Source: Nitrospirota bacterium (lineage in GTDB: Bacteria > Nitrospirota > UBA9217). From it: 64,000 nucleotides of DNA. Location: NCBI GenBank assembly GCA_037444505.1, contig JBBIMH010000016.1:22015-86014 (forward strand). Direction: 5' to 3'. Of the stretch, positions 10,314 to 56,694 are shown piece after piece. Under the pieces are notes generated by a model. It did no database searches, was not told the DNA's origin, and saw only the letters and a program-made list of their open reading frames with translations. The stretch's first letter is position 1. Every line of letters begins with the position of its first letter. A program made the translations under genes and the position numbers.

Positions 10314-10948
10314 AGTGGTCGCTTACAAGGGCGGATCAATCAATTTCCATTCCAGAGGCCTCGGGTTCGATTTACGAGAATGTGCGCCGCTCGGTGCTCC
10401 TTGCGAGGCTCGAAGACATGCTTGCTTGGAGCCGCAAGAACTCGCTCTGGCCGTTCAATTTTGGCCTTTCATGCTGCTACGTGGAGATGGCCACGAGCCT
10501 CACAAGCAAGTACGACATTGCGCGCTTCGGCTCGGAGGTGCTGAGGGGCACTCCCAGAGAGGCGGATCTCATCGTCATCGCCGGGACGGTGTTCATAAAG
10601 ATAGCGCCGATAATAAAGCGGCTGTATGAGCAGATGATGGCCCCGCGTTGGGTCATCTCGATGGGATCCTGCGCCAACTCCGGCGGCATGTACGACATAT
10701 ACAGCGTGGTGCAGGGCGTGGACAAGTTCCTCCCTGTGGATGTCTATGTGCCGGGATGTCCTCCGAGGCCCGAGGCGTTCATAGAGGGTCTGCTCATGCT
10801 GAGAGAGGCTGTGGGCAGCGAGAAGAGGCCTTTAAGCTGGATCGTCGGAGCGCATGGGGCAGAGAGGCCTGAGATGCCCTGCCGCAGAGATATGAAGCGC
10901 GATGAGCGGAGGAAGATGACAATGCTCAGGCCGCCTGATGAGGTATAG
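10310..10948 (+). CDS. nuoB: NADH-quinone oxidoreductase subunit B
   Basis: [14 protein letters not shown] and VPGCPP, the cluster N2 ligand motifs. Confidence 0.95.
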
Positions 10949-12740
10949 GATACGGCAGGTGTTGGGCGGATTGTCCAATATGCAGAGCTCCATGAATCAA
11001 ACCAGCGATGTTATCACCGAACTTTGGACACGCTTCGGCGGGGCCAAAATCCTGCACGAGGCTGCGAGCGACGGCATGCCCACGATATGGGTAGAGAAGT
11101 CCGTGCTTAAAGATGCCCTTCGTTATCTCAAAGAAGGGATCAAACGTCCATACAGGATGCTCTATGACCTCACCGTCATAGACGAGCGGGTTCGCGTGCA
11201 CAGGCAGGGCCTGGCCGATAGCCATTTCACCGTTGTCTATCACCTCCTCTCATTTGGCAGGAACGAATACATCCGGATAAAGGTCGGCCTTGATAAAGAC
11301 GGCTTATCCGTCCCGAGCATCACCGACATATGGCCTGCTGCGAATTGGTACGAACGCGAGGCCTGGGATATGTTCGGCGTCGTCTTCGAGGGACATCCAA
11401 ATCTGCGGAGGATATTGATGCCTCCGACATGGCAGGGACACCCTCTAAGAAAGGACTATCCTGCAAGGGCCACGGAGTTCCCCCCTTTTCACCTTTCCGA
11501 AGAGAGGCATGAAAAAGAGGAGGAGGCCTTGAGATTCAGGCCAGAGGACTGGGACATGAAGCCCAAGGCGGAAGGCAGAGACTATATGTTCCTGAATCTC
11601 GGCCCCCATCATCCAGGCACGCACGGGCTTTTGCGCATCATCCTCGAGCTCGACGGAGAGGAGATACAGGATGCCGTGCTCGACATAGGCTATCACCATC
11701 GCGCTGCGGAGAAGATGGCGGAGCGCCAGTCCTGGCACACATTCATACCATACACGGATCGAATAGATTACTTCAGCGGTGTGATGAACAACTTCCCGTA
11801 TGTGCTGGCCGTAGAGATGCTTGCGGGAATCGATGTCCCTGACAGGGCTAAGGTGATACGCGTGATGATGGCGGAGCTGTTTCGGATCGCGAACCACCTC
11901 GCATGGTACGGCACATTCGCAGCGGATGTCGGTGCGCTCTCGCCTGTCTTTTACATGTTCACGGACAGGGAAAAGGTATTCGATATAGTCGAGGCTGTAT
12001 GCGGAGGTCGCATGCACCCCGCCTGGTTCCGCATCGGCGGGGTAGCCCAGGATCTGCCGAGGGGATGGGATGAGCTCGTGAAAGGCTTCCTGTCGTATCT
12101 GCCCTCTCGTCTCGATGAATACGATACAATGGTCCTAAAAAACAGGATATTCAAGGCGCGCACCAAGGGCATAGGCGCTTATACAACGGAAGACGCGATC
12201 GAGTGGGGAGTGACAGGACCCGGCCTCAGGGCGACCGGATTCGGGTGGGACTTCAGGAAGGAGAGGCCGTACTCGGGATATGAGCAGTTCGACTTCGACA
12301 TCCCCACAGCAGTGCACGGAGACAGCTATGACCGTGCAGTGGTCCGCGTGGAGGAGATGCGCCAGAGCCTCCGCATCATAGAGCAGTGCGTGAAGATTAT
12401 GCCTTCCGGGCCTTACAAGGCTGCGCACCACCTCGCCGTGCCTCCGCTCAAGGAGCGTACGATGAAGGACATAGAGACGCTCATTACGCACTTTCTCGGC
12501 GTGAGCTGGGGGCCTGTGATTCCGGCAGGCGAGGCCTTTGTCGGCATAGAGGCGACAAAGGGGAGCAACGGCTATTATGTAATCAGCGACGGCGGCACTA
12601 TGCCGTATCGGGTGCGCATACGTACGCCCTCCTTCCCTCACATGCAGATGGTGCCTGAAATCAGCCGCGGCCTGATGGTAGCGGATCTTTTGGCTATTCT
12701 GGGGAGCATCGACTTCATACTTGCCGATGTGGATAGGTAG
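10938..12740 (+). CDS. nuoC: NADH-quinone oxidoreductase fused subunit C/D
   Basis: A single 600-aa ORF. The N-terminal 30-kDa part has ERE-WDMFG and the C-terminal 49-kDa part has [12 protein letters not shown]...RIRTPSF. An alternative start is the ATG at about 10980. Confidence 0.95.
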
Positions 12741-28899: not shown

Positions 28900-29318
28900 A
28901 TCAATGCGCTATATCTCCACTCATAATCCGATTGATGTACTCGTCTCGCTGTCCAGGAAGAACTCCGACATGGACGGCCTGCCGGTATAATGCTCTATGC
29001 CGAAGCGCCATGTCCTGCTCCCTGATCTGAACATCACACCCGCCTGGAATGAATGCAATGTCGATTCTCCAATTGTGCCCCTCCCATGAAAGTGCTGTAC
29101 CCTGTCTTATCTCAAAGGCGATAACCGCGAAGCCGAGAAGAGCGCGAAGAAAAGGCTAAATACTTTTTTTAGGTGGTCAATCCTTGCGCCCTTTGCTTTT
29201 TGGCGGGTCAAAATTTTGGCTTTGCTCTATTGGTCTTTGGCCTCGCCTCGCTAAATTATTGGAACCATCCTTTGTGATTGTGGTATTATATGCAGTCCGT
29301 GAGACATATGAGGGAGGT

Positions 29319-30197
29319 ATGGTGGCCATGAAGACGGATATTGCCAAGAAACTCTTCACATGGGTGAGCATCTGCGCTGCAATTTACACCATCATCGAGA
29401 TGGTCATGCAGTCCTTCGGCTCGAGTATCTGTGCCACAGAGGGCTGCAAAGTCGTCTCCAGCCATACGAGGTTCGGCGATATGCCTATCCTCGTCATCGG
29501 ACTCGGCCTCTTCGTTTCCCTGGCTGTATTGAACGTCCTCGACAGCAGGCTGCTGAGCGGCCGCTATGGAAACATCATCGACATACTGCTCATAGCCGGA
29601 CTGGGTGCAGAGGGGTTCTTTACTGGTTACCAGGCGTTCCACATAAAGACGCCGTGCGTATTCTGCCTCTCCATATTCGGATTGGTGCTCTTGCTCGCCA
29701 TCCTCAGGTTCATGTCTGGAGAGAAGGCGGTCCTTGCAGGTCTTGTCTCGTTCGCCGCCGTATTCCTCCTTCTATATCTTGTTCTCCCCGCGGGTGGGAT
29801 CGGGCAATTGCCGCGCGACGCCAGGCTCATGCTCTTCTACAGCGAAGATTGCCGACACTGCGCTGAGATAAAAAAGAAGATGGAGGAGGCGGGCATAAAG
29901 GCGGAACACCTGAAGGCCGGCGAGTATGCCGATTTTCTCAAGGCGGCCGGCATAGAGCATGTGCCCACCCTCCTGGTGAACGAGCCGTACCGGAAGCTTT
30001 ATCTCACAGGAAAGGAGACCATAGAGTGCTTTCTTTTCGACGAGGAGGACAAGAAAGGCGCATCCGCACCGAAATATAAGGGCAGCAGCCGAGAGGCCGG
30101 GCCGGTGAATATACTCGACGGTCAGCCGGAGATATTCACTCCGTCGGACGACCCCGGGGTCTGCAGCGAGAACACCCAGAAGGAAGAATGCAAATAG
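29319..30197 (+). CDS. VKOR-family membrane oxidoreductase fused to a thioredoxin-like domain
   Basis: Loop Cys pair CATEGC followed by VVSSHTRFGDMP. Membrane-embedded CVFC in TM4 and a fifth TM helix. Then a Trx-like FYSEDCRHC...HVPTL with a cis-Pro. Start at ATG 29319 or 29328, after GGAGG. Confidence 0.7.
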   Translation: MVAMKTDIAKKLFTWVSICAAIYTIIEMVMQSFGSSICATEGCKVVSSHTRFGDMPILVIGLGLFVSLAVLNVLDSRLLSGRYGNIIDILLIAGLGAEGFFTGYQAFHIKTPCVFCLSIFGLVLLLAILRFMSGEKAVLAGLVSFAAVFLLLYLVLPAGGIGQLPRDARLMLFYSEDCRHCAEIKKKMEEAGIKAEHLKAGEYADFLKAAGIEHVPTLLVNEPYRKLYLTGKETIECFLFDEEDKKGASAPKYKGSSREAGPVNILDGQPEIFTPSDDPGVCSENTQKEECK

Positions 30198-30241: not shown

Positions 30242-30299
30242 AAAAAACCGTGAATAGCGACTGATTCCATCATACCCATACTTGCGGGGCGCTCATCCT

Positions 30300-31118
30300 A
30301 TGAATCTGTATTTCTTTAAGGCCGCTATGGCGGCCTATCTATGCGCGGCAGCTGGATATGTGTTTTATCTTTTGAAGCCTGAATTCAAGAAAGGCGCGGC
30401 GGCGTCGCTCTCTTTCTGGCTCTCGTCAATCGGGCTCGTCTTTCACATAGCCTACTTCGGTTTGCGCTGGGTCGAGTCCAGCCGGATACCTGTCACCAGC
30501 TTCTTCGAGGCCGCAAACTTTCTTGCTATGGGCATTTTGCTTGTCTTCATCATAATGGAACTCCGTTTCAAGATACCGGCCATCGGCTCGTTCATGCTTC
30601 CGCTTGTGATACTGCTCATGCTGCCTGCTGCATTTGTCTCCGGCGATATAAAGGACATGAATCCCGTCCTTAAGAGCGGCTGGCTCGGTGTACATACGAG
30701 TCTCGCCGTGCTCGGAGACGCCGCCTTCGCCTTCGCGTTCATAATCTCGATTATGTATCTAATCCAGGAGCGACAACTCAAGAGAAAGCGCATGGGCGCC
30801 ATATTCCATAGACTGCCGTCGCTCAAGGTCATGGACACCTTGGGCTACAAGGCGATCTCTTTCGGATGGCCGTTGTTCACCCTGGGCATGATCACCGGCT
30901 CTATATGGGCGGAGAGCGCATGGGGCGCGTACTGGAGCTGGGACCCGAAGGAGACGTGGTCGCTCATTACATGGGCGATATATCTTGTCTTCCTTCACCT
31001 CCGCACGATAGGCTGGCGCGGAAGAAAGATGGCGTATCTATCCATTGCCGGATTCGTCTTCGTGCTGGTGAGCTTCTTTGTAATAAGCAGGGTCGGGACG
31101 GGCAAGCATGTGTTCTGA
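30300..31118 (+). CDS. CcsA/ResC-family cytochrome c assembly protein (HemX-like position upstream of hemA)
   Basis: Polytopic protein with the Trp-rich WGAYWSWDPKETWSLITW heme-handling motif. Confidence 0.85.
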   Translation: MNLYFFKAAMAAYLCAAAGYVFYLLKPEFKKGAAASLSFWLSSIGLVFHIAYFGLRWVESSRIPVTSFFEAANFLAMGILLVFIIMELRFKIPAIGSFMLPLVILLMLPAAFVSGDIKDMNPVLKSGWLGVHTSLAVLGDAAFAFAFIISIMYLIQERQLKRKRMGAIFHRLPSLKVMDTLGYKAISFGWPLFTLGMITGSIWAESAWGAYWSWDPKETWSLITWAIYLVFLHLRTIGWRGRKMAYLSIAGFVFVLVSFFVISRVGTGKHVF

Positions 31119-33609: not shown

Positions 33610-35148
33610 ATGAGCGGACAGATAGGCAAGGTGTATTTAGTAGGCGCAGGACCGGGAGACCCGGGGTTGATCACCCTCAAGGGCCTGGAGTGCGTAAAAA
33701 AGGCCGATGTCATAATATACGATTATCTGGCCAATGAGAGGCTCCTGGAGCATCGCAGGCCTGACGCCGAACTCATATATGTCGGCAAGCAGGGAGGCAG
33801 ACACACCCTGCCCCAGACCGAGATAAACGCCGTCATCGTCAAGAAGGCGAAAGAGGGCAGGATCGTCGTCAGACTCAAGGGCGGGGATCCTTTCATATTC
33901 GGCAGGGGCGGAGAAGAGGCAGAGGAGCTCGTGGACAATGGCATCCCATTCGAGGTAGTACCTGGCGTCACTGCTGCGACTGCCGTCCCTACATATGCAG
34001 GCATACCACTTACTCATCGCGAACATACCGCGAGCGTCGCCTTCGTAACAGGCCATGAAGACCCAACGAAGCCCGAGTCCAAGGTACATTGGGACAAGAT
34101 AGCAACGGGCATAGGCACGCTCGTTTTCTTCATGGGCATGAAGAACCTCGGTTATATCGTGGACAGCCTCGTCTCGAACGGCAGACCGAAGGATACGCCA
34201 GTCGCCCTCATCCAATGGGGCACAAGGACCGACCAGCGGGTGGTCACTGGAACTCTCGAGGACATAGTCGAAAAGGTAGAACGCGCCAGACTCGGAGCCC
34301 CTGCCATCATAGTCGTGGGCGAGGTAGTGAGGCTGAGGGATAAGCTCAACTGGTATGAGTCCAAGCCCTTTTTCGGGAAGCGCATCGTTGTCACGCGCTC
34401 GCGAGATCAGGCGAGCATGTTTGCAGAGAGGCTCATAGACCTCGGCGCCACTGTTATAGAATTCCCGACGATAGATGTCGTCCCGCCATCGAGCTGGGGC
34501 GAGCTCGACAACGCCATAGAAAATATAGAATCATACGACTGGCTCATCTTCACGAGCGCGAATGCGGTCAAGTTCTTCTTCGACAGGCTCAAGGCACTCG
34601 GCAAGGATGTGAGAGCGCTCAAGGACGTATCCATATGCTCGGTCGGTCCCAAGACCGCGGATGCGCTCGGGGATTACGGTCTCAAGGCGGATCTCATACC
34701 TTCCGAGTTCAAGGCTGAAGGGGTTGTTTCTGCGCTCGGTCAGGACGTAAGGGGAAAGAGATTCCTCATCCCCAGGGCGAAGGTCGCCAGGGAGGTGATA
34801 CCTGACAGGCTCAGGGAGCTCGGCGCGGAGGTCACGGTAGCCGTTGCATACGAGAATGTGAGGCCTGTATCTGATGTCGAGAGGCTCAGGAGGCTTTTCG
34901 AAGAGAAGAAGATATCCGCCGTCACCTTCACCAGCTCATCCACCGTCAACAATTTTGTTGAAATGCTTGGTGAAAAAGAGTATAAAAAGCTCATTGAAGG
35001 AGTTGTCATTGCGTGCATCGGGCCTGTCACTGCGAAGACGGCGAGGGAATACGGCATGGATGTGCACATCATGCCGAATGAATACACCATACCTGCTCTG
35101 ATAGATGCAATGGCAGAGTATTTCAGGCAGCGAAGAGCCGGACCATAG
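33610..35148 (+). CDS. cobA: Bifunctional uroporphyrinogen-III C-methyltransferase / uroporphyrinogen-III synthase (CobA/HemD fusion)
   Basis: The N-terminal half is SUMT (VYLVGAGPGDPGLITLKG...GGDPFIFGRGGEE). The C-terminal half, about 250 aa, is HemD-like (VVTRSRDQAS...FTSANAV). Confidence 0.9.
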   Translation: MSGQIGKVYLVGAGPGDPGLITLKGLECVKKADVIIYDYLANERLLEHRRPDAELIYVGKQGGRHTLPQTEINAVIVKKAKEGRIVVRLKGGDPFIFGRGGEEAEELVDNGIPFEVVPGVTAATAVPTYAGIPLTHREHTASVAFVTGHEDPTKPESKVHWDKIATGIGTLVFFMGMKNLGYIVDSLVSNGRPKDTPVALIQWGTRTDQRVVTGTLEDIVEKVERARLGAPAIIVVGEVVRLRDKLNWYESKPFFGKRIVVTRSRDQASMFAERLIDLGATVIEFPTIDVVPPSSWGELDNAIENIESYDWLIFTSANAVKFFFDRLKALGKDVRALKDVSICSVGPKTADALGDYGLKADLIPSEFKAEGVVSALGQDVRGKRFLIPRAKVAREVIPDRLRELGAEVTVAVAYENVRPVSDVERLRRLFEEKKISAVTFTSSSTVNNFVEMLGEKEYKKLIEGVVIACIGPVTAKTAREYGMDVHIMPNEYTIPALIDAMAEYFRQRRAGP

Positions 35149-47266: not shown

Positions 47267-48259
47267 ATGTCCTTGTTTCATGAACACGGCGGGCATTCTC
47301 ACGATGAAGGGAGTCTGGACGAACGCCCTCTCGATCGGTCAGACGAAAGGGGCAGGACAGGCCTGCTCATGGCGCTTGTGATCACTGCTGTCATGATGAT
47401 TGCAGAGGTGATAGGCGGCCTTTTGGCGAACAGCCTCGCACTGCTTTCTGATGCAGGCCATATGCTCACGGACACGCTGGCCCTCGCCCTCTCTTTCTTT
47501 GCCATGAAATTCGCCGAGCTGCCGGCTACGGAGCGGAAGACCTTCGGTTTCTACAGGTTGGAGATCCTCGCTGCCCTCGTAAACGGCGTGGTGCTTGTGA
47601 TCGTATCTCTGTATATCGGCTACCATGCGTATCACAGGATAATAAACCCCCAGCCCGTCGAAGGCGAGCTGATGCTCGGCGTGGCCGCGCTCGGCCTCTT
47701 TGTGAATATCGCGGGCGCCATGTTCCTCATCAAACATAAGAAGACGAGCCTGAACATCAGGGGCGCATATCTCCATATAGTCGGCGATGCCCTCTCGTCG
47801 CTCGGCGTCATCGTCGGCGGCATAATCATCCTATACACCGGTTGGAATATAGTGGATCCCATCCTTAGCATCATAATCGCACTCGGCATCATCATCGGAG
47901 CGGCGGCACTCGTCATGGAATCCGTACACATACTGCTCGAGTCCGCGCCTTCTCACATCAGTGTGGCCGCCGTGGCCGCCGAGATGGAGAAGATAAAAGG
48001 CGTGCGCGAGGCATACCATGTGCACCTCTGGACCATTACATCAGGCATGTACGCAATGAGCGCGCATGTGCTCATAGATGACCAGCTCGTGAGCAAGAGC
48101 AGGGAGATCCTGGACGACATCAGAAGGCTGTTGTCCGATAGGTTCAAGATATTTCACAGCACGATCCAGCTCGAGTGCGAAAAATGCGACGCCACCTCTG
48201 CGTGTGCGCTTCCTGTAGGTGTCACGAAAAATCAGAAGGGCGGCGGTCTTAATCCTTGA
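47267..48259 (+). CDS. Cation diffusion facilitator transporter (CzcD/ZitB-like)
   Basis: His-rich N-terminus (HEHGGHSHDE), SLALLSDAGHMLTD and HIVGDALSS metal-site motifs, and a C-terminal cytoplasmic domain. Confidence 0.9.
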   Translation: MSLFHEHGGHSHDEGSLDERPLDRSDERGRTGLLMALVITAVMMIAEVIGGLLANSLALLSDAGHMLTDTLALALSFFAMKFAELPATERKTFGFYRLEILAALVNGVVLVIVSLYIGYHAYHRIINPQPVEGELMLGVAALGLFVNIAGAMFLIKHKKTSLNIRGAYLHIVGDALSSLGVIVGGIIILYTGWNIVDPILSIIIALGIIIGAAALVMESVHILLESAPSHISVAAVAAEMEKIKGVREAYHVHLWTITSGMYAMSAHVLIDDQLVSKSREILDDIRRLLSDRFKIFHSTIQLECEKCDATSACALPVGVTKNQKGGGLNP

Positions 48260-48338
48260 CAATGTCGCTTGCTTTGGTTACACTACGCTCGTACTAATTA
48301 AATTTTGTCATATCATACCGGCATCACGTCGTCGAGAT

Positions 48339-49325
48339 ATGCGATCAGTACTCGTAACCGGTGGTACCGGATTTGTTGGCAGCCATCTCGTGGAGCTGCT
48401 CATATCGAAGGGATATGATGTGACGTGCCTCGTCCGAGACCCTGATAGGCTGCGCTGGCTTCGGGGTCTCGATGTCCGCATCGTGGCCGGGGACTGCACG
48501 ATTCCGGAGTCGCTTCCAAAGGCTGTTTCCGGCGTGACGATGGTCTTTCACGCAGCAGGTCTTACGAAGGCGCTCAGGCCTCGAGAGTACTACAGGGTCA
48601 ATCATATAGGCACGCAGAATATTCTCGCTGCCTGTGCAAAGTATAATCCAGGAATCAAGAAGTTCGTTCTTGTATCGAGCCTTGCAGCCGCGGGTCCCGG
48701 TCGAGACGGGACGCCGGTCAAGGAGAGCGATCTGCCGAGACCGGTTTCGGATTATGGAATGAGCAAGCTGCTTGCAGAGAAGGAGGCGTTGAACTACAAG
48801 GATGTCCTGCCCGTGGTGATACTCAGACCGTCGGCGGTCTATGGACCGCGGGACACCGACATGTTCGAACTCTTCAGATGGGCGTCGAAGGGATTGGCGC
48901 CGATGTTTAAGGGAGGCGAGCGGTTCATAAATCCATGTTTCGTAGCCGATCTCGCTCGGGCATTGCTGCTTGCTGCAGAGAGGGAGATGAAGAGCGGTTC
49001 GGTCTATTTTGTGGCTGAAGACAGGGCATACTCATGGACCGAATTTCAGGATGAGTTGCTTAGCGCAGGCAGTGTATCCGCAAGGCGGATAGCCATACCG
49101 GCATGGGCAGGCTATCTCCTCGCGTTCGTCCAGGAGATGAAGGGTATGCTTGCAGGCAGGCCGCCGATTACTAACAGGCAGAAGGTGAGGGAGGCGCTCC
49201 AGAGGTATTGGGTCTGCGACCTGTCTAAGACGGAGAATGACCTCGGGTTTCGGGCGGCGTATCCGCTCTCCCGGGGCCTCGCCGTTACATGGCAGTGGTA
49301 TCGCGAAAAGGGGTGGATAAGATGA
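48339..49325 (+). CDS. NAD(P)-dependent epimerase/dehydratase-fold (extended SDR) reductase
   Basis: [14 protein letters not shown] Rossmann motif immediately after the ATG at 48339, plus the YGMSK catalytic YxxxK. The track start at 48219 overlaps the CDF gene and adds non-SDR sequence. Confidence 0.85.
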
Positions 49326-50557
49326 AGGCCGTCGCTGATATCGAACGAGATAAAATTATTGCTCAGGAGGGGAATCAGTTGGATTTATTTGAGAAGTGCA
49401 GGAAATACACGGCAGCCAAGGAGGTCATGGCGGCCGGCTTCTATCCGTACTTCAGGGTTGTAGAGTCGGAGCAGAACCCTGAGGTCATGGTAGCCGGCAG
49501 GAAGATGATAATGCTCGGCTCGAACAACTACTTAGGCCTAACGAGCCATCCGAAGGTGAAGGAGGCCGCGATAGAGGCGGTGAAGAAATACGGATCCGGC
49601 TGCGCAGGCTCGCGTTTTCTGAACGGCACCCTCGACATACATGTAAGGCTCGAGGAAAAGCTCGCCGCCTTCTTTAGAAAAGAGGCCGCCCTGACCTTTT
49701 CGACGGGATACCAGACCAACCTGGGCATCATATCCTCCCTGGCAGGCAAGGACGATGTGGTGATAATAGACAAGCTTGACCACGCGAGTATCATCGACGC
49801 CTGCCGCCTCTCCTTCGCCGATGTGAAGAAGTTCAAGCACAACGACATGTCGAGCCTCGAACATGTGCTGAAGGAGAGCGGCAAGAAGGGCAAGCTCGTC
49901 GTGGTGGACGGTGTGTACAGCATGGAAGGAGATATCGCTCCTCTTCCTAAGATCGTGCCTCTATGCAAGAAATACGGGGCCAGGCTGATGGTGGACGACG
50001 CCCACGGCATAGGCGTGCTCGGAAAGACCGGCAGGGGGACTGCGGAGCACTTTGGTCTCGAAAAGGAAGTGGATATCATCATGGGAACATACAGCAAGTC
50101 CATGGCATCCATCGGCGGTTTCGTCGCCGCTGACGAGGACGTGATCCATTACATGAAGCATACATCCAGGCCGCTCATCTTCTCAGCGAGCCCGCCGCCC
50201 GCTTCGGTGGCCTCCGTCATAGCCGCGCTCGACATCATTGATCAAGAACCTGAGCTCAGGGAGAGGCTGTGGCACAATACGAACAAGATGTTGAAGGCAT
50301 TTAAGCAGATGGGCTTCGACACCGGTGTGGCCGAGACGCCGATCATCCCGCTTTTGATGGGAGAGATGGACAGGGCCTTCATGATGTGGAAGATACTGAA
50401 CGAGGAGGGGGTCTTCGTGAATCCCGTTGTCCCGCCTGCAACGACCCCCGGCCGCTGCCTCATTCGCACGAGCTATATGGCGACTCATACCGAAGAGATG
50501 CTCGATCGTGTCCTCGTCATTATCGAGAGGGCTGGAAAGAAGCTCGGCGTCATATGA
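49322..50557 (+). CDS. PLP-dependent alpha-oxoamine synthase, serine palmitoyltransferase-like (commonly auto-annotated as 8-amino-7-oxononanoate synthase or KBL)
   Basis: [50 protein letters not shown] and GTYSKS (PLP Lys). From memory, these blocks match Sphingomonas SPT better than E. coli KBL or BioF. Confidence 0.8.
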
Positions 50558-50566
50558 GGGGCGGCT

Positions 50567-51685
50567 GTGCAGATAGAGCTCGTATCTGACAAGAGGCGAT
50601 TGGATGAGTTCATCCGCCTTCCATGGAAGGTCTATCGGGATTATCCCAACTGGGTGCCGCCCCTTATCTCGGAGGTAAGATTCGTCCTCGGAAACAAGAA
50701 CCCTTTTTTCGAGCATGCGGAGGCCGCATACTTCATGGCGCGCGATGCTGGCCGCATAATCGGAAGGAACGCGGCCATCATCGATCACAATTACAACAAT
50801 TTTCAGAAGGAAAAGACGGGATTCTTCGGTTTTTTCGAATGCATGCCGAACAGGCCCGATGCAGCTGCCGCCCTGATGGATGCGGCCGCTTCCTGGCTTG
50901 CCGCCCGCGGCATGAACAGGATGCTCGGGCCTATGAACCCCTCCACCAATGATGAGTGCGGCTTCCTCCTCGATGGATTTGACATGCCTCCCATGATCAT
51001 GATGCCGTACACCCCGCCTTGCTATCTAGAATTCATGGAGCGGTGCGGCATGCGTAAGGCCAAGGACCTGTTTGCATATCTCTCTCTCATCAAAGACCAA
51101 ATTTCGAAGAGCGAAAGGCTCGAGCGCATCAATCGGGCCGTAAGGTCCAAAATACCGGGACTTGTGGTTCGGTCCGCTGATATGAATAATTTCAAATCCG
51201 AGCTCGAAAAGGTGAAGGATATCTACAACTCCGCCTGGGGCGGTAACTGGGGCTTCGTGCCCATGACGGACAAAGAGATAGAGGCCATGGCGAAGAGGCT
51301 CAAACCGTTGATCGTGCCGGAGCTCCTTATCATCGCGGAGATAAACGGCGACCCTGCCGCCTTCTTCATGGCCGTTCCGGACTACAACCAGGTGCTGTCT
51401 CGGATGGGCGGAAGGCTCTTCCCGTTCGGTTTCATGAAGTTCCTTTGGTATTCGAGGAAGATCACTGACATCAGGGTCATGACCCTCGGCGTGAAGGGAG
51501 AATACAGAAAGAAAGGCCTCGAGGGGCTTTTGTATCTCGAATCCTTTAAGGCTGCCATGAAGAAGGGGTATGTGCATGCAGAGATGTCATGGGTGCTCGA
51601 GGACAATGTGCTTATGCAGCGCGGCTGCGAGCTGATGGGCGGCAGGCTGTACAAGAAATACAGACTGTATGAAAAGGACATCTGA
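50567..51685 (+). CDS. Large GNAT-fold N-acyltransferase-like protein (372 aa)
   Basis: GTG start 10 nt after the upstream stop. The C-terminal acyl-CoA-binding-like block is VMTLGVKGEYRKKGLEGLLY. The family call is from general resemblance only. Confidence 0.55.
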   Translation: MQIELVSDKRRLDEFIRLPWKVYRDYPNWVPPLISEVRFVLGNKNPFFEHAEAAYFMARDAGRIIGRNAAIIDHNYNNFQKEKTGFFGFFECMPNRPDAAAALMDAAASWLAARGMNRMLGPMNPSTNDECGFLLDGFDMPPMIMMPYTPPCYLEFMERCGMRKAKDLFAYLSLIKDQISKSERLERINRAVRSKIPGLVVRSADMNNFKSELEKVKDIYNSAWGGNWGFVPMTDKEIEAMAKRLKPLIVPELLIIAEINGDPAAFFMAVPDYNQVLSRMGGRLFPFGFMKFLWYSRKITDIRVMTLGVKGEYRKKGLEGLLYLESFKAAMKKGYVHAEMSWVLEDNVLMQRGCELMGGRLYKKYRLYEKDI

Positions 51686-52271
51686 CCCTATGGACGGGAT
51701 CGGGAGGAAATTCTATCATGCGTTGGGAGGCGTCTGGCTCATCGCGATGTACTATGCGCTCGGAAGGGACAAGGCACTCTTGTTCTATGCCGGCCTGGCG
51801 CTCTTCGTCGCTTCTATAGAGGCTGCGAGGCTTGGCTCGCGGAGGATAAACGAATTCATCTTTAAGCATTTCAGCGGCTTCATACGGAAAAAAGAGGCGG
51901 ACAGACCCACCGGCACCCTCTGGTATGTGCTCGGCGTCGGGCTGTCTTTCTACATGTTTTCTCCAGAGTCGGCTACGGCGTCGGTATGCTTTCTGGCCTT
52001 CGGGGACGTCACTGCAACCACAATAGGACAGCGTTACGGAAAGACTAAGATAGGCAACAAGAGCCTCGAGGGCACGGCGGGATTTTTGATCGCATGCGCT
52101 CTTGCATCGCTCCTTCTCTCTCTATTGGACCTTGCGCCTCCATGGCAGGCGCTCGTTGTGGGTTCGATCGTCGCGGCTGCAGTGGAGCTTATGCCCGTTA
52201 AGGTGAACGACAATCTTTCCATTCCCGTTATTGCAGGAGGGGTCATGGAGGCAGTTCTAAGATCGCTTTGA
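51669..52271 (+). CDS. CTP-dependent lipid kinase / cytidylyltransferase-superfamily membrane protein (dolichol/phytol/DAG-kinase-like)
   Basis: About 6 TM helices and the signature FGDVTATTIGQRYGKTKIGNKSLEGTAGF. Overlaps the GNAT gene by 17 nt. Confidence 0.6.
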   Translation: MKRTSDPMDGIGRKFYHALGGVWLIAMYYALGRDKALLFYAGLALFVASIEAARLGSRRINEFIFKHFSGFIRKKEADRPTGTLWYVLGVGLSFYMFSPESATASVCFLAFGDVTATTIGQRYGKTKIGNKSLEGTAGFLIACALASLLLSLLDLAPPWQALVVGSIVAAAVELMPVKVNDNLSIPVIAGGVMEAVLRSL

Positions 52272-53135
52272 TGATCGGAGCGTCTTGCGATACAGCATGC
52301 TTGTGAGAGGTATGGTCCCTGCCGTGAGAAGGACTCCGGCGATTACATCGATCACATAATGATATCTTAGATATACCGTAGAAATTATCAGCAGCGACAC
52401 CGTGGGAACGAGCAGTATGGTGAGCGTCTTTTCATTGAACTTCCAGGCATAGTAGAGGGTCATGAGCGCAATCGCCGTATGGCCGCTCGGGAATGCGTCC
52501 GTCTTCGTATTCTCGAGGGCGTTGAGGGTATCCTGTATGGCGAGGACGAAAGCCCCTGCGTCCAGCCCCCTTGTCTGGGCGTGGGCGAGTGCGAATCTCG
52601 GGCCGAGTGCAGGGACGAGGATATATCCTATATAAGAAAGGTAGAAGCAGAGGATTATTCCGAAGACGGCCTCATCGAACTCCTTCATCCTGCCCTTGGA
52701 GACGAGCACGATGCCGAGCACTATCGCCATGGGATAGTATGTAATGTAGGCGATTTGGAGAATAACGGTCACGACTGGATGTACGAACCGCTCGAGCCAG
52801 ACCGTAGGATGAACCCCGAATATGGCATGGTCTATCTTGATGAGGATATCATCCATGAGATGCGGCCGTATCCAGGGGATGAGGTCTCCAAGACTGTCGA
52901 ATACCACGGGCACTATGAGGACAGGCAGGAAGATATGCAGGTAACCAGCGGGCCTCCAGGTATGTGAAGTGCCTACATACCATGCGGTCGCCGAGAGAGT
53001 GATAATAAGCAAGACGTATCTCAACAGGAGCCAGTGCCAATGAGGTATATTCAAATGGAATACAGCTGTCAGGCTTGCGAGCAGCCCTATGAAAACGATC
53101 GAGACTATGTCAACCGGCTTGATATTCGGCTGCAT
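52257..53135 (-). CDS. PAP2-superfamily membrane protein of the Aur1/IPC-synthase/sphingomyelin-synthase type
   Basis: Polytopic protein. It has the C2 and C3 motifs DAFPSGHTA and YLRYHYVIDVIAG, but I see no canonical KxxxxxxRP C1 motif. Confidence 0.65.
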   Translation of the reverse strand: MQPNIKPVDIVSIVFIGLLASLTAVFHLNIPHWHWLLLRYVLLIITLSATAWYVGTSHTWRPAGYLHIFLPVLIVPVVFDSLGDLIPWIRPHLMDDILIKIDHAIFGVHPTVWLERFVHPVVTVILQIAYITYYPMAIVLGIVLVSKGRMKEFDEAVFGIILCFYLSYIGYILVPALGPRFALAHAQTRGLDAGAFVLAIQDTLNALENTKTDAFPSGHTAIALMTLYYAWKFNEKTLTILLVPTVSLLIISTVYLRYHYVIDVIAGVLLTAGTIPLTSMLYRKTLRSSKRS

Positions 53136-53254
53136 GGTCCATGTTTATACAATATAGTCTCGCAAATTGCAAGCCCTATGAGCACCGGCGGTGCGGGCTC
53201 GAATCCAACCGTCGTGATGAATAAATACTCTTGGGCCTATTGATCGGAGTAGAG

Positions 53255-53719
53255 ATGCCGGCTACGGAATTTACATTTACGGTGAAGCTTCCCATCAAGG
53301 CGGTCTGGTCGTTTATGTCCGACAGGAACGAGGTAGGCTGCCTCTTTCCGGGCTGCAAGGGCGTGAAGATACTCAATGATCTGGATTCCATCTGGACCGT
53401 GAAGGTATCACTCGGACCTTTCAGCAGGACAGTGGTGATGAAGACCCACACGACGGAGTTCAAGGAATTCGAGAGGCTTTCCTGGACGGCGACCGGAGAC
53501 CACATTACGTCCGCAGGGGATGTGAGACTCGAGAGGATTTCCGACTCCGAGACAAAAGTGACATACAAAATAGAGGGCCATGTGCACGGGCCGTTTGCAG
53601 CGATTCAGGATATAGTTGTCGCTGAAAAACTCAGGGAGCTGGCGAAGAAGTTCATCCATAACATCAAAGAGCAGCTCGAATGGCAGATAGAGCCTTATAA
53701 CCAAGAGAAGAAGATATGA
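53255..53719 (+). CDS. SRPBCC-fold (CoxG-like) ligand-binding protein
   Basis: About 155 aa. Its pattern (F.F.V.LPI..VWSFMSD...V..C.PG...) is typical of CoxG/polyketide-cyclase-fold proteins. ATG at 53255. Overlaps the next gene by 4 nt. Confidence 0.65.
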   Translation: MPATEFTFTVKLPIKAVWSFMSDRNEVGCLFPGCKGVKILNDLDSIWTVKVSLGPFSRTVVMKTHTTEFKEFERLSWTATGDHITSAGDVRLERISDSETKVTYKIEGHVHGPFAAIQDIVVAEKLRELAKKFIHNIKEQLEWQIEPYNQEKKI

Positions 53720-54804
53720 AACCGTCAGTGAAAAAAGGCGCGGTCTGGGTCGCGATAGCAGCGGTCTTGGTCTTCATGTTCATCCTGCTCGTCTCGACCG
53801 GAAAACCTGTAACGGTCAAGGCCATGCAGGTAAAGGCGGGCGAGCTCAGGGTGGTCATAAACGCAACGACCACCTCAACAGTCAAGTCCGAGTACGAGGC
53901 CACGCTCTCCGCCCAGAGGACAGGCAGGGTGGTGAGGCTGCCTGTGAGGGAAGGGGACTTTGTCAAGGCCGGGGAGGTGCTCGCTGAGCTGGATCTCACC
54001 GAGGAAGAAGTGCGTGCGCAGAACAATCTCTCACAGGCCAGGGCCACCTTCATAGAAACTGAGAAAAACCTCAAGCGCCTGGAGGGCCTGTTTGAGAGGG
54101 GCATTGTCGCCCAGCAGGACCTCGATGCGGGTCGTCGGGCATACGAAGTCGCAAAGGCCCAGTACGAGGCTGCGTCGAAAGAGGTCAAGGTCCTCGGAGA
54201 CTATACCATAATACGGGCGCCTTTCTCCGGCGTCGTTGCCAAGAAGCGCACAGAGGTGGGCGAGCTCGTCATACCTGGCAGAGAGATAGTTACAATCGTG
54301 GATCCGGACCGCATCTATGTCCTCGCTACGATCGATGAGGTGGATGTGGGCAGATTGAGGCTCGGCCAACCCGTGACCATCACGGTCGATGCATTTCCTG
54401 GAGAGACTTTCTCCGGCAAGGTGAGGAGGATATCTCCCATCGTAAGCGGCGGAAAACTCGAGACGCGCACAGCGGATGTCTGGATATACTTCGATAAGAA
54501 GGACAGGAGGATAAAGCCCGGCATGTCCGCCGACATAGAGATACTCGTGGATACGCTCCCCTCAGTCCTGTTCGTGCCTACGCAGGCCGTCATAGTCCGC
54601 GAAGGCAAGAAACAGGTATACGTAGCAGAAGGCCGCTCCCTCGGCCCGGGTTCTAGGACCAAGGCGAGGTTGAGAGCAATCGAAGAGGGAGAGAGCAACT
54701 GGAGTTTCACAGAGGTGAAGTCCGGACTGGCGGAAGGGGAATATGTGATCACTACACCGGATGCCGAGGGGCTGAAAGACGGGGCAAAGATAAAGATAGA
54801 GTGA
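53716..54804 (+). CDS. HlyD/MacA-type periplasmic adaptor (membrane fusion protein)
   Basis: N-terminal TM helix, lipoyl-like halves (V.AGE...V.EGDFVKAGEVLAELD / IRAPFSGVV), a coiled-coil hairpin and a beta-barrel region. Confidence 0.87.
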   Translation: MKPSVKKGAVWVAIAAVLVFMFILLVSTGKPVTVKAMQVKAGELRVVINATTTSTVKSEYEATLSAQRTGRVVRLPVREGDFVKAGEVLAELDLTEEEVRAQNNLSQARATFIETEKNLKRLEGLFERGIVAQQDLDAGRRAYEVAKAQYEAASKEVKVLGDYTIIRAPFSGVVAKKRTEVGELVIPGREIVTIVDPDRIYVLATIDEVDVGRLRLGQPVTITVDAFPGETFSGKVRRISPIVSGGKLETRTADVWIYFDKKDRRIKPGMSADIEILVDTLPSVLFVPTQAVIVREGKKQVYVAEGRSLGPGSRTKARLRAIEEGESNWSFTEVKSGLAEGEYVITTPDAEGLKDGAKIKIE

Positions 54805-54814
54805 TGCGCATATC

Positions 54815-55489
54815 ATGATCGAGCTGAACGGCATAACGAAGATTTATAGAATGGGGGATGTGGAGATATGCGCCCTCTGCAACATATCCCTCGGAATAGA
54901 GAGGGGGGAGTTCATTGCAGTGATGGGGCCGTCCGGCTCGGGCAAGTCAACCCTCATGAATCTTCTGGGCTGCCTCGACAGGCCTACATCCGGTATATAT
55001 AGATTCGAAGGCAGGGAGATAAGCTCGATGAGCGATGACGAGCTTGCCTTTATCAGAAATACGAAGATAGGGTTTGTCTTTCAGTCGTTCAACCTCCTCC
55101 CAAGGTTTTCTGCCCTCAAAAATGTGGAGGTGCCGCTTATATACAACGGCGTTCCTTCGCACAAACGTGCGGAACGCGCAGCAGATCTCCTTGCGCGCGT
55201 CGGCCTCAAAGACAGAATGTATCACAAGCCGAGCGAGCTTTCCGGCGGACAGCAGCAGCGCGTTGCCATCGCTCGCGCCCTCGTGAACAATCCCCCCCTC
55301 CTGCTCGCCGACGAGCCCACTGGCAACCTCGACAGCCGCTCAGGCGCGGAGATACTCGATATCATCTCTGACCTCAATCGGCAGGGTATGACCATAATGA
55401 TAGTGACGCACGACCCCGAGGTCTCAGGTAGGTGCAAACGGGTGATCAATCTCAAAGACGGACACATAATCGGAGACAGGGCAATATGA
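54815..55489 (+). CDS. ABC transporter ATP-binding protein (MacB/LolD family)
   Basis: Walker A GPSGSGKST, Q-loop, signature LSGGQQQRVAIARAL, Walker B LLLADEPTGNLD and H-loop VTHD. Confidence 0.93.
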   Translation: MIELNGITKIYRMGDVEICALCNISLGIERGEFIAVMGPSGSGKSTLMNLLGCLDRPTSGIYRFEGREISSMSDDELAFIRNTKIGFVFQSFNLLPRFSALKNVEVPLIYNGVPSHKRAERAADLLARVGLKDRMYHKPSELSGGQQQRVAIARALVNNPPLLLADEPTGNLDSRSGAEILDIISDLNRQGMTIMIVTHDPEVSGRCKRVINLKDGHIIGDRAI

Positions 55490-56694
55490 ATCTGATCGAG
55501 ACATTCAGGGTAGCGCTCGAGGCGATACTTTCTAATAAAGTCCGCTCTGGTCTCACCATGCTCGGCGTGATAATAGGCGTCCTTGCGGTCATACTCCTTG
55601 TATCCATCGGCGAGGGCGCGAGGGTATATATCACCAAGGAGCTCACAGGCATAGGCACGAACCTGCTCGTGATCACGCCCGGCAAGACCACCACATCCGG
55701 CGGTTTTCACCCGCCTTCCGCAGGGACGGTGAGAAAGCTCACATACGACGACGCCCGCTCACTGAAGCGCAGGGCATGGCTCCTGTCTGATGCGGTGCCC
55801 ATTGTCCTCGGGTCTGGAAGGGTGAAATACGAAAACAGGGCACGTGATACGATGATAATCGGTACCACCCCGGAGTTCGAGAGGGTACGCAACCTCTTCG
55901 TGGAGGTAGGCTCGTTTGTGACGCAGTCCGATGTAGATGCGAAGCAGAAGACCGTCGTGCTCGGAAGACGCGTTAAGGACGAGCTGTTCGGCGCCGAGAG
56001 CGCGCTCGGAAAGATAGTGACCCTATCCGACGCCCGCTACAGAGTGGTCGGCGTTATGAAAAAAAAGGGCGTGAGCCTCGGCTGGGATGTGGATGACGTA
56101 GTCTTCATCCCAGTCACCAGCGGCCAAGAGCTTTTCGATACGGATGCCTTGTTCGAGATTATAGCATCCACTCCTCGGGCAGAGGATACGGAGAAGGCGA
56201 TCGCCCAGATAAAGGAAATCCTGATAAAGAGACATGCGCACAAGGAGGATTTCACCATCATGACGCAGGGCGCGATGATAGAGACCATGAACACGATCCT
56301 GCGCGTACTTACCGCCGTGCTCGGAGGCATCGCCGGCATATCTTTGCTCGTCGGCGGCATCGGCATCATGAACATCATGCTCGTGTCCGTGCGCGAGAGG
56401 ATCCGCGAGATCGGCATCAGGAAGGCCTTGGGCGCGAGGAACAAGGATATTCTCTGGCAGTTCATAATAGAGGCGATGACGCTCTCAGTCGTCGGTGGCA
56501 TGATAGGCATATTTCTCGGGGTCTGTATCGCCCTTATGATCCCGGTCTTCGTGCCTGTTCTGCCGACGAGCGTCTCGATATGGTCCATAGTACTTGCTGT
56601 TACTTTCTCTGTCGCAGTGGGTATATTCTTCGGAGTATATCCTGCACGGAAGGCCGCCCTTCAGGACCCCATACAGGCGCTCCGGTATGAATGA
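55486..56694 (+). CDS. ABC transporter permease (MacB_PCD plus FtsX domain)
   Basis: ATGA overlap with the ATPase gene. One TM helix, a roughly 220-aa periplasmic domain, then three TM helices with the RERIREIGIRKALGA motif. Confidence 0.9.
   Translation: MNLIETFRVALEAILSNKVRSGLTMLGVIIGVLAVILLVSIGEGARVYITKELTGIGTNLLVITPGKTTTSGGFHPPSAGTVRKLTYDDARSLKRRAWLLSDAVPIVLGSGRVKYENRARDTMIIGTTPEFERVRNLFVEVGSFVTQSDVDAKQKTVVLGRRVKDELFGAESALGKIVTLSDARYRVVGVMKKKGVSLGWDVDDVVFIPVTSGQELFDTDALFEIIASTPRAEDTEKAIAQIKEILIKRHAHKEDFTIMTQGAMIETMNTILRVLTAVLGGIAGISLLVGGIGIMNIMLVSVRERIREIGIRKALGARNKDILWQFIIEAMTLSVVGGMIGIFLGVCIALMIPVFVPVLPTSVSIWSIVLAVTFSVAVGIFFGVYPARKAALQDPIQALRYE

Follow-up and report, generated by a model that had tools for sequence, protein, structure and literature searches.

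We analysed a 64,000-nucleotide (nt) stretch of contig JBBIMH010000016.1 (hereafter the window, at its full length) and found, at positions 48339–53135, five adjacent genes that we consider likely to encode a bacterial ceramide pathway together with a probable head-group step. The first three predicted proteins are an extended short-chain dehydrogenase/reductase (SDR) resembling the ceramide reductase CerR, an alpha-oxoamine synthase (AOS) resembling serine palmitoyltransferase (Spt, SPT) and a GNAT-fold N-acyltransferase resembling the bacterial ceramide synthase bCerS; they are followed by a small membrane protein and, on the opposite strand, by a membrane protein of the PAP2_3 family. We favour the ceramide pathway because the first three proteins are homologous over their full length to the E. 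coli orthologues and are syntenic across phyla. A preliminary description, made from the letters of this DNA, had proposed such a cluster, in which Spt stands with a GNAT of the bCerS type, a reductase of the CerR type and a PAP2 protein, and both homology and synteny support it.

The synthase is closest to serine palmitoyltransferases

The synthase gene (49322–50557, plus strand) encodes a 411-amino-acid (aa) pyridoxal phosphate (PLP)-dependent enzyme of the alpha-oxoamine synthase family (Pfam Aminotran_1_2, 207.8 bits), which NCBIfam models, PDB matches and a neighbour-joining (NJ) tree all place with Spt. Its top NCBIfam model is NF047600, the Spt of the Cytophaga-Flavobacteria-Bacteroides (CFB) type, at 575.5 bits, leading by about 140 bits over a BioF/Kbl-family subfamily model (436), with Kbl (409) and BioF (397) behind; none of the BioF, Kbl and ALAS models of NCBIfam reaches its own cut-off with this protein. 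The best match in the PDB is the SPT of Sphingobacterium multivorum (430 bits over residues 22–399), followed by Sphingomonas-type SPTs at about 312–320, KBL at 273 and a cysteate-fatty-acyl transferase (CFAT, 28eh) at 260. The PLP-lysine block GT(Y/F)SKS (here GTYSKS) and the blocks HASIID and DDAH(G) align with the S. multivorum enzyme. CFAT, with 260 bits against 430 for SPT, is not the closest relative, and the alternative of capnine synthesis is disfavoured.

Pairwise comparison gave 41% identity to E. coli Spt (E 5e-105) and 52.9% to a Bacteroides finegoldii aminotransferase that adjoins a gene of the diacylglycerol (DAG)-kinase family and that we take to be an SPT of the BT_0870 type. 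An NJ tree was built from 29 synthases, comprising those of the loci that we fetched and SPT, KBL and BioF of E. coli; its outgroups thus came from E. coli only and included no CFAT, CqsA or ALAS. KBL and BioF split from all the other proteins in this tree with 97% bootstrap, and the window synthase fell among the GNAT-adjacent synthases, grouped at 68% with a Bacteroides SPT-like clade. The identities follow the same line, with 53% to the Bacteroides protein versus 38–41% to rhodobacterial SPTs. The model scores, the PDB scores and the split in the tree all bear out the earlier assignment of the synthase to Spt rather than to BioF or KBL.

Homology of the acyltransferase and the reductase to ceramide enzymes

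The acyltransferase gene (50567–51685, plus strand, GTG start) encodes a 372-aa protein with a weak Pfam match to Acetyltransf_1 (23.9 bits), no matching NCBIfam model and no significant sequence match in the PDB. Foldseek searches with its AlphaFold2 model (pLDDT 76.6) returned the tandem-GNAT structure 2wpw and MshD (E ~1e-13 to 1e-12), and the sequence matches E. coli YghO from end to end with 37% identity (E 4e-84). In E. coli B, yghO (ECD_02850) has been identified as the orthologue of the Caulobacter ceramide synthase gene CC_1154, and ECD_02852 as that of CC_1164 (CerR) (PMC9386255). The full-length homology to YghO substantiates the relationship to bCerS-type enzymes that had been suggested before. 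Moreover, tblastn searches of plasmid records found a Roseomonas protein with 38% identity over the full length (E 2e-78), whose gene is flanked by LptF/G paralogues and an NTP transferase gene and lies ~10 kb from an acp-spt pair; the sphingolipid region of Caulobacter is laid out in the same way, and the Roseomonas protein is a positional CerS orthologue. A Rubrobacter homologue (42.6% identity) is encoded by the middle gene of an spt-GNAT-SDR cluster. Homologues of the acyltransferase number in the thousands.

The reductase gene (48339–49325, plus strand) encodes a 328-aa NAD(P)-dependent extended SDR of the Epimerase/3Beta_HSD group (Pfam Epimerase, 133.6 bits), with the N-terminal GxxGxxG site for NAD(P) present as TGGTGFVG at residues 7–14. 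It is 27% identical over its full length (E 2e-34) to the E. coli protein annotated ‘epi’, whose gene lies at the place of ECD_02852, and it shares 39% identity with the SDR of the Rubrobacter cluster. All three proteins share the same order of NCBIfam matches, HpnA and then OleD, all far under cut-off (the window SDR reaches 150 bits on the HpnA model, whose cut-off is 367). Together with synteny, these matches suggest that the SDR would reduce the 3-keto group of 3-ketosphinganine or of N-acyl-3-ketosphinganine.

The start of the reductase deserves attention, as an N-terminal extension would bear on the periplasmic location reported for CerR of Caulobacter (PMC11087976). The frame is open for 40 codons further upstream, to a GTG at 48219 (48219–48338), overlapping the end of the preceding CDF gene and adding a hydrophobic stretch. 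The gene call in L001, a relative with 94% identity, likewise gives 328 aa, and two more distant relatives have SDRs of 333–341 aa.

The probable ceramide genes recur across phyla and, in related loci, are tracked by a PAP2_3 gene

Scanning GTDB species genomes with the GNAT protein yielded 31 loci, several of them on short contigs, from lineages that include Bipolaricaulia, Calditrichaeota, Ignavibacteria, Gemmatimonadales, Chloroflexota, Thermoleophilia, Polyangia, Saprospiraceae and Alphaproteobacteria. An Spt homologue lies within 8 kb of the GNAT gene in 17 of the 31 and an SDR homologue in 14. Such synteny of the three genes across phyla identifies them as the known bacterial ceramide module. 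Closer to the window, the survey of synteny that had been proposed earlier showed the whole five-gene block to be conserved in three relatives (L001, L036 and L038) with differing flanks.

A metagenome scan with a profile of the small membrane protein gave 80 loci, all with the membrane-protein gene, onto which we mapped twelve window proteins. This revealed a conserved backbone that can be written (OEP)-RND-MqnA-CDF-[SDR-AOS-GNAT]-membrane protein-[PAP2]-(TolC-like OMF)-SRPBCC-MFP-ABC-FtsX. For a count of co-variation we took the 47 loci with at least 700 nt on either side of the membrane-protein gene and scored sphingolipid genes as present when GNAT and/or AOS stood upstream. PAP2 downstream and sphingolipid genes upstream were both present in 24 loci and both missing in 23, with no discordant locus (Fisher p = 6e-14, a value that ignores the relatedness of the loci). 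PAP2 thus behaves as part of the ceramide module.

The PAP2 gene (52257–53135, minus strand, convergent with the other four) encodes a 292-aa membrane protein of the AUR1/IPC-synthase/sphingomyelin-synthase type, matching Pfam PAP2_3 with 85.6 bits against a gathering score of 27. Its catalytic motifs C2 (FPSGHT, containing SGH) and C3 (HYVID, matching HxxxD) are kept in homologues from four phyla; the C1 motif KxxxxxxRP was not found in it. Family and motifs agree with the earlier view of this protein as an Aur1- or sphingomyelin-synthase-type head-group transferase, an activity that stays putative. The protein has no significant sequence match in the PDB, and its best NCBIfam match is phosphoinositol dihydroceramide synthase (NF052609), at 31.6 bits versus a cut-off of 480, which does not make it an orthologue of BT_1522, the AUR1-like PAP2 protein that is experimentally required for phosphoinositol (PI)-dihydroceramide synthesis (PMC9246714). 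PAP2_3 homologues also adjoin spt or GNAT genes in a Gemmatimonadales metagenome-assembled genome (MAG), in another MAG and in Nonomuraea (L010, L011 and L045). As the PAP2 gene tracks SDR-AOS-GNAT without exception, its product is likely a ceramide phospho-head-group transferase.

A further arrangement was seen in Bacteroides finegoldii (NZ_OY725910.1; L044, 4703–6666), where the gene for an extended SDR (29% identity to that of the window, E 2.5e-42) runs 10 nt into the start of a PAP2_3 homologue, the two standing outside the inositol-lipid cluster. A reductase and a head-group enzyme of Bacteroides could be encoded here, with weak family signals. We gave it little weight as a Bacteroides counterpart of the window genes: its SDR has a different NCBIfam pattern, and its PAP2 protein matches no curated model.

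A small membrane protein shared by loci with and without the probable ceramide genes

The fourth gene (51690–52271, plus strand) encodes a polytopic membrane protein of 193 aa. The AlphaFold2 model (pLDDT 91.7) has eight helices, and its top Foldseek match, which is also the sole high-probability structural match, is TmCdsA (4q2g; probability 0.96, E 0.13, TM 0.45/0.35). Pfam CTP_transf_1 is matched at E<1 by 6 of 24 family members, and two remote relatives of greater length, P0376 and P0339, come close to the Pfam threshold, with 23.3 and 20.0 bits over most of that profile. The family profile has no significant match among PDB sequences and no NCBIfam model matches the protein; tblastn of the window protein found nothing in plasmid records. 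An exhaustive profile search (E<=1e-3) recovered 6820 clusters at 50% identity, most listed members being 190–220 aa long. The motifs GRKxxH, GDxxAxxxGxxxGxxKxxxKSLEG (with KSxEG) and NDN are invariant.

The CTP_transf_1 superfamily includes the dolichol kinase Sec59, the phytol kinase VTE5 and the yeast CTP-dependent DAG kinase Dgk1, and the invariant motifs presumably resemble those of this CTP-dependent polyprenol/DAG kinase branch. The protein had been put forward as a member of the CTP-dependent lipid-kinase family. What stands of this is a remote resemblance to CTP_transf_1 and CdsA; at the same time, the Pfam match is sub-threshold and the Foldseek E value is 0.13, so that the assignment to a remote branch of the CTP_transf_1 (CdsA/polyprenol-DAG kinase) superfamily is weakly supported. 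One 570-aa protein, P0385, combines an N-terminal domain of the small-membrane-protein family with a C-terminal GT21/HpnI-like lipid glycosyltransferase (Glyco_transf_21, 111 bits; HpnI, 199 bits, below cut-off), a fusion that hints at an action of the family on lipid head groups.

The motifs of the membrane protein are intact both in loci with sphingolipid genes and in loci without them. The membrane protein and the SRPBCC protein are resident genes rather than genes dedicated to the pathway, and the proposal of a self-contained operon therefore has to be narrowed: SDR, AOS, GNAT and PAP2 are dedicated, and the membrane protein is resident, leaving four dedicated genes and not five. On a backbone that is itself conserved, these four come and go together, in the manner of an accessory module. 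Counting changes between presence and absence of the module on NJ trees gave 10 for the membrane-protein tree (permutation mean 21.8) and 5 for the CDF tree (10.1), and the membrane-protein tree sorts the two states no better than the trees of CDF, SRPBCC and MFP. Several such changes imply that the module was lost or gained several times.

The complete five-gene block of L038 has other flanks, and the divergent locus L100 (358–9255 of the metagenome contig Ga0334722_10000163) has an unrelated backbone and reads serA-purA-SDR-AOS-membrane protein-PAP2-sigma54 response regulator, with no GNAT gene within 6 kb; serA encodes 3-phosphoglycerate dehydrogenase, an enzyme of serine synthesis. Both loci keep the membrane-protein gene between the sphingolipid genes and PAP2, which speaks against a purely accidental position. 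In L119, AOS lies directly upstream of it. We infer that the membrane protein is a long-standing neighbour and that what it does serves the cell whether sphingolipids are made or not; a DAG-recycling lipid kinase would fit this description.

The SRPBCC/CoxG protein (53231–53719) was considered as a dedicated START-like, ceramide-binding partner and rejected, because loci that lack the sphingolipid genes have it just as often; there it is usually the first gene of a TolC/MFP/ABC/FtsX export operon. In the window (53231–56694; also L052, 6681–7970), SRPBCC/CoxG is followed by genes for MFP, an ABC ATPase and an FtsX-type permease, a MacAB-like exporter. A TolC-like OMF gene precedes SRPBCC in most relatives, and SRPBCC lies downstream of the membrane protein in 36 of 43 assessable loci. 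The exporter operon and the membrane-protein gene remain neighbours irrespective of the sphingolipid genes.

Gene junctions and genomic surroundings

A six-frame listing of open reading frames (ORFs) places all five genes where they had been described. The SDR and synthase genes overlap by ATGA (49322–49325), as reported before, with a Shine-Dalgarno-like GGGGTGG run preceding; the synthase TGA (50555–50557) is separated from the GTG at 50567 by the 9-nt gap noted earlier, which holds GAGGGG. A third junction has to be revised. The 17-nt overlap at 51669–51685 depends on starting the membrane protein at ATG 51669 (giving 200 aa), and the homologues, ~193–196 aa long, start at the equivalent of Met8 (all 120 among the matches listed), as does the gene call in L001 (94% identical). 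The start is therefore probably ATG 51690, 4 nt past the GNAT stop and with AAGGA 11 nt upstream, which would replace the 17-nt overlap by a 4-nt gap. At their 3’ ends the membrane-protein gene (stop 52269–52271) and the PAP2 gene (stop 52257–52259 on the reverse strand) overlap by 15 nt. The spacing of the genes would be compatible with translational coupling, which is inferred from this spacing alone. The SDR gene is preceded by a 79-nt gap with a candidate promoter-like site, TTGACA-17-TACACT (48256–48284, plus strand; 10 of 12 consensus matches); a consensus scan found 4 such sites in the region with 3.8 expected from shuffling, which is not above chance.

GC content is uniform over the window (0.51–0.58), and the genes around the locus belong to the chromosomal core (LeuRS, the nuo operon, haem synthesis, HflX, an RND pump). 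The nuo operon contains a NuoC-NuoD fusion (10938–12740; Complex1_30kDa and Complex1_49kDa in one 600-aa protein), and the run of haem-synthesis genes a CobA/SUMT-HemD fusion (33610–35148; TP_methylase and HEM4, 512 aa). A 337-aa ORF without a Pfam match (29184–30197) lies directly upstream of a CcsA-type cytochrome c assembly gene (30282–31118) and may encode a divergent ResB/Ccs1-like partner.

Proposed pathway and alternative explanations

In the pathway that we propose, Spt would condense L-serine with an acyl thioester to 3-ketosphinganine. The thioester would probably be acyl-CoA, as in the Bacteroidota/delta-proteobacterial subgroup of Spt, since no gene for a dedicated acyl carrier protein or acyl-ACP synthetase is present. 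The GNAT protein would then N-acylate 3-ketosphinganine, and the SDR would produce dihydroceramide by NAD(P)H-dependent reduction of the 3-keto group, although the order of N-acylation and reduction is disputed in the literature. By analogy with AUR1, sphingomyelin synthase and BT_1522, the PAP2_3 protein would transfer a phospho-alcohol head group from a glycerophospholipid to ceramide, yielding a phosphosphingolipid and DAG; phosphoethanolamine or phosphoglycerol would be the simplest guesses for the head group. For the membrane protein, predicted to be co-transcribed, the most economical role would be that of a CTP-dependent lipid kinase, for example one recycling DAG like yeast Dgk1, an activity that could be useful without sphingolipids as well.

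Several observations weigh against this interpretation. With 575.5 bits the synthase stays under the NF047600 equivalog cut-off of 640, and its substrate could be serine, alanine or glycine (giving 1-deoxy bases) or cysteate. A synthase with 53.6% identity is encoded on a Priestia megaterium plasmid (CP109762.1; L040, 6004–7218) without a GNAT or SDR neighbour, and therefore membership in this clade alone is no proof of ceramide synthesis. The SDR matches E. coli epi at only 27% identity; moreover, it has its Rossmann motif at residue 6 and no visible signal peptide, unlike the Caulobacter CerR reported to be periplasmic. The comparison with the Caulobacter CerS and CerR proteins is itself indirect, having been made via their published E. 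coli B orthologues. As for the remaining two genes, the PAP2 protein scores 31.6 against 480 on the PI-dihydroceramide synthase model and could be a phosphatase, and the membrane protein matches Pfam CTP_transf_1 (PF01148) in its C-terminal conserved region with 15.6 bits (E 0.015), under the cut-off of 24, and in 23 of 47 loci is encoded although every sphingolipid gene is missing.

The synthase gene of this Bacillota plasmid adjoins a membrane acyltransferase-family gene and a methyltransferase gene, and may mark a different long-chain amino-ketone pathway.

The same enzymes might make a non-canonical long-chain-base lipid, either 1-deoxy(dihydro)ceramides from alanine or glycine or a sulfonolipid of the capnine type from cysteate. 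The missed equivalog cut-off (575 versus 640) would fit, as would the cysteate acyltransferase 28eh, still a clear homologue at 260 bits, and the anoxic Black Sea is rich in 1-deoxy- and sulfono-1-deoxyceramides attributed to anaerobes, for example Desulfobacterota and Bacteroidota (PMC11334938). We nevertheless regard this outcome as improbable: SPTs score far above the cysteate enzyme (S. multivorum 430 and Sphingomonas ~312, versus 260), we saw no gene for a cysteate synthase in the window, and 1-deoxy bases are devoid of the C1 hydroxyl needed by a PAP2_3 transferase, which co-varies perfectly with the synthase. A different proposal concerns the last two genes, which could form a lipid phosphate cycle, with a CTP-dependent kinase acting on ceramide, prenol or DAG and PAP2 as the opposing phosphatase, so that ceramide and ceramide-1-phosphate would be the products. 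Members of the PAP2 superfamily are mostly phosphatases, the weaker NCBIfam matches of the window protein are to PgpB, UppP and LpxE, and its gene adjoins that of the membrane protein, with a tail-to-tail overlap, in every PAP2-bearing locus; in Caulobacter, an anionic sphingolipid is reportedly built from kinase-made ceramide phosphate (PMC10331486, PMC11324152). On the other hand, PAP2_3 is the AUR1/IPC-synthase clade (85.6 bits) and the protein is without the KxxxxxxRP C1 motif typical of phosphatases, its best curated match is a ceramide phosphoinositol transferase, in other phyla PAP2_3 genes adjoin spt or GNAT where the membrane protein is missing, and conversely 23 loci have the membrane protein but no PAP2, all of which makes such a cycle rather unlikely in our judgement.

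It could finally be argued that the genes are unrelated neighbours, namely a KBL- or BioF-type synthase of threonine or biotin metabolism, an epimerase acting on sugars or in hopanoid synthesis and an acetyltransferase of a generic kind. Taken singly, the proteins indeed receive only generic names (‘aminotransferase class I/II’, ‘NAD-dependent epimerase’, ‘GNAT’), and the best NCBIfam match of the SDR is HpnA, a hopanoid-associated epimerase. This would, however, leave the synteny of the trio in at least 10 phylum-level lineages and its gain and loss as a unit with PAP2 to coincidence, the synthase separates from KBL and BioF, and the HpnA score of 150 bits falls short of 367. We therefore hold coincidental neighbourhood to be highly implausible, and keep the ceramide pathway as the preferred interpretation of the locus.

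Comparison with known systems

The ceramide pathway of Caulobacter was reportedly worked out by Olea-Ozuna (2021) and Stankeviciute (2022). In Caulobacter and E. coli B the pathway comprises Spt (CC_1162), CerR (CC_1164) and bCerS (CC_1154, of the YghO family), and the E. coli SPT has been assayed (PMC9386255). The window locus shares with it the three enzyme families, with full-length homology to the E. coli orthologues, the soluble tandem-GNAT and extended-SDR types and the logic of the cluster. It differs in having no gene for the AcpR carrier protein or the AasR acyl-ACP synthetase and none for LptF2/G2, the CpgB kinase or CpgD; moreover, its Spt belongs to the Bacteroidota/delta-proteobacterial subgroup, its head-group chemistry would fall to PAP2_3, and its SDR shows no evident signal for export, in contrast to the CerR of Caulobacter, reported as periplasmic. 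The yghO region of E. coli PN43 (NZ_MG591698.1; L004, 916–10122) carries spt, acp, an epimerase gene, a fatty acyl-AMP ligase gene and yghO, along with second copies of LptF and LptG and a flippase-like gene; it is of the rhodobacterial type and matches the published E. coli B cluster.

The Bacteroidota SPTs (S. multivorum, 3a2b/8guh; BT_0870 type) are the best-scoring characterised relatives of the window synthase, which keeps the PLP lysine and the His and Asp residues and has the CFB model as its top match, but falls below the equivalog cut-off of that model. The three genes are dispersed in Bacteroidota (PMC11334938), whereas they are contiguous in the window. With BT_1522, AUR1 and the sphingomyelin synthases, the window PAP2 protein has in common the Pfam family PAP2_3, the presence of SGH and HxxxD, the absence of C1 and a genomic tie to ceramide synthesis. 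It differs from BT_1522 in its score on the BT_1522 model (31.6 bits versus 480) and in having no gene for inositol-phosphate synthase or PIP synthase nearby, and the head group is therefore probably not inositol. The small membrane protein, like the members of the CTP_transf_1 superfamily, is a polytopic helical membrane protein, with CdsA as its one high-probability structural match (E 0.13) and a weak Pfam match; unlike them it is much shorter (193 aa), stays below the Pfam and NCBIfam thresholds and belongs to a large unannotated family that extends beyond sphingolipid loci.

Lineage and significance

Bacterial sphingolipids were long thought to be rare; the Spt/bCerS/CerR pathway was defined in 2021–2024 and is now predicted in dozens of phyla. 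To our knowledge, the head groups and the way in which they are attached are mostly not known outside Bacteroidota and Caulobacter. The nearest named homologues of the window proteins (~70% identity for GNAT, 52% for the membrane protein) come from Nitrospirota/Nitrospiraceae MAGs, with one labelled Betaproteobacteria, and Rfam and tRNA scans found no rRNA or tRNA genes in the window. In the library searched, no paper explicitly ties Nitrospirota to Spt, and to that extent the earlier remark that such lipids are poorly documented in this lineage holds. It is weakened by the hundreds of close environmental homologues and by the spread of Spt-like genes over 38–40 phyla: in a set of MAGs that spans 38 phyla, Ding et al. 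(2024) found Spt-like proteins, in many cases encoded close to bCerS and CerR, which brings the potential sphingolipid-producing phyla to 40, and they also reported abundant sphingolipids in anoxic water (PMC11334938).

The locus is thus a new example of an already known bacterial ceramide route, and does not overturn the current understanding. What it adds is the pathway as one contiguous set of genes in an anaerobe that is uncultured and probably Nitrospirota-like. Modestly new are the co-variation of PAP2_3, which points to a head-group candidate outside Bacteroidota, the unannotated family of miniature CTP_transf_1-like proteins, and the polymorphism in presence and absence. The PAP2_3 gene that tracks the ceramide genes offers a concrete candidate for a head-group transferase.

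More tentatively, and as a bolder possibility that we would not yet bet on, the PAP2_3 protein could be an uncharacterised ceramide phosphotransferase (for instance a ceramide-phosphoethanolamine or ceramide-phosphoglycerol synthase) that recurs beside spt and cerS in Nitrospirota-like bacteria, Gemmatimonadota and Actinomycetota; the small membrane protein could found a family of miniature CTP-dependent lipid kinases (~6,800 clusters at 50% identity) that recycle DAG or phosphorylate ceramide; and the four dedicated genes could be an accessory ‘sphingolipid island’ repeatedly lost or gained around it in one environmental lineage. The presence/absence polymorphism on a conserved backbone could help to ask what sphingolipids contribute ecologically, and, if the bolder possibility is true, the sphingolipid island would amount to a natural presence/absence experiment on the role of sphingolipids in anaerobes.

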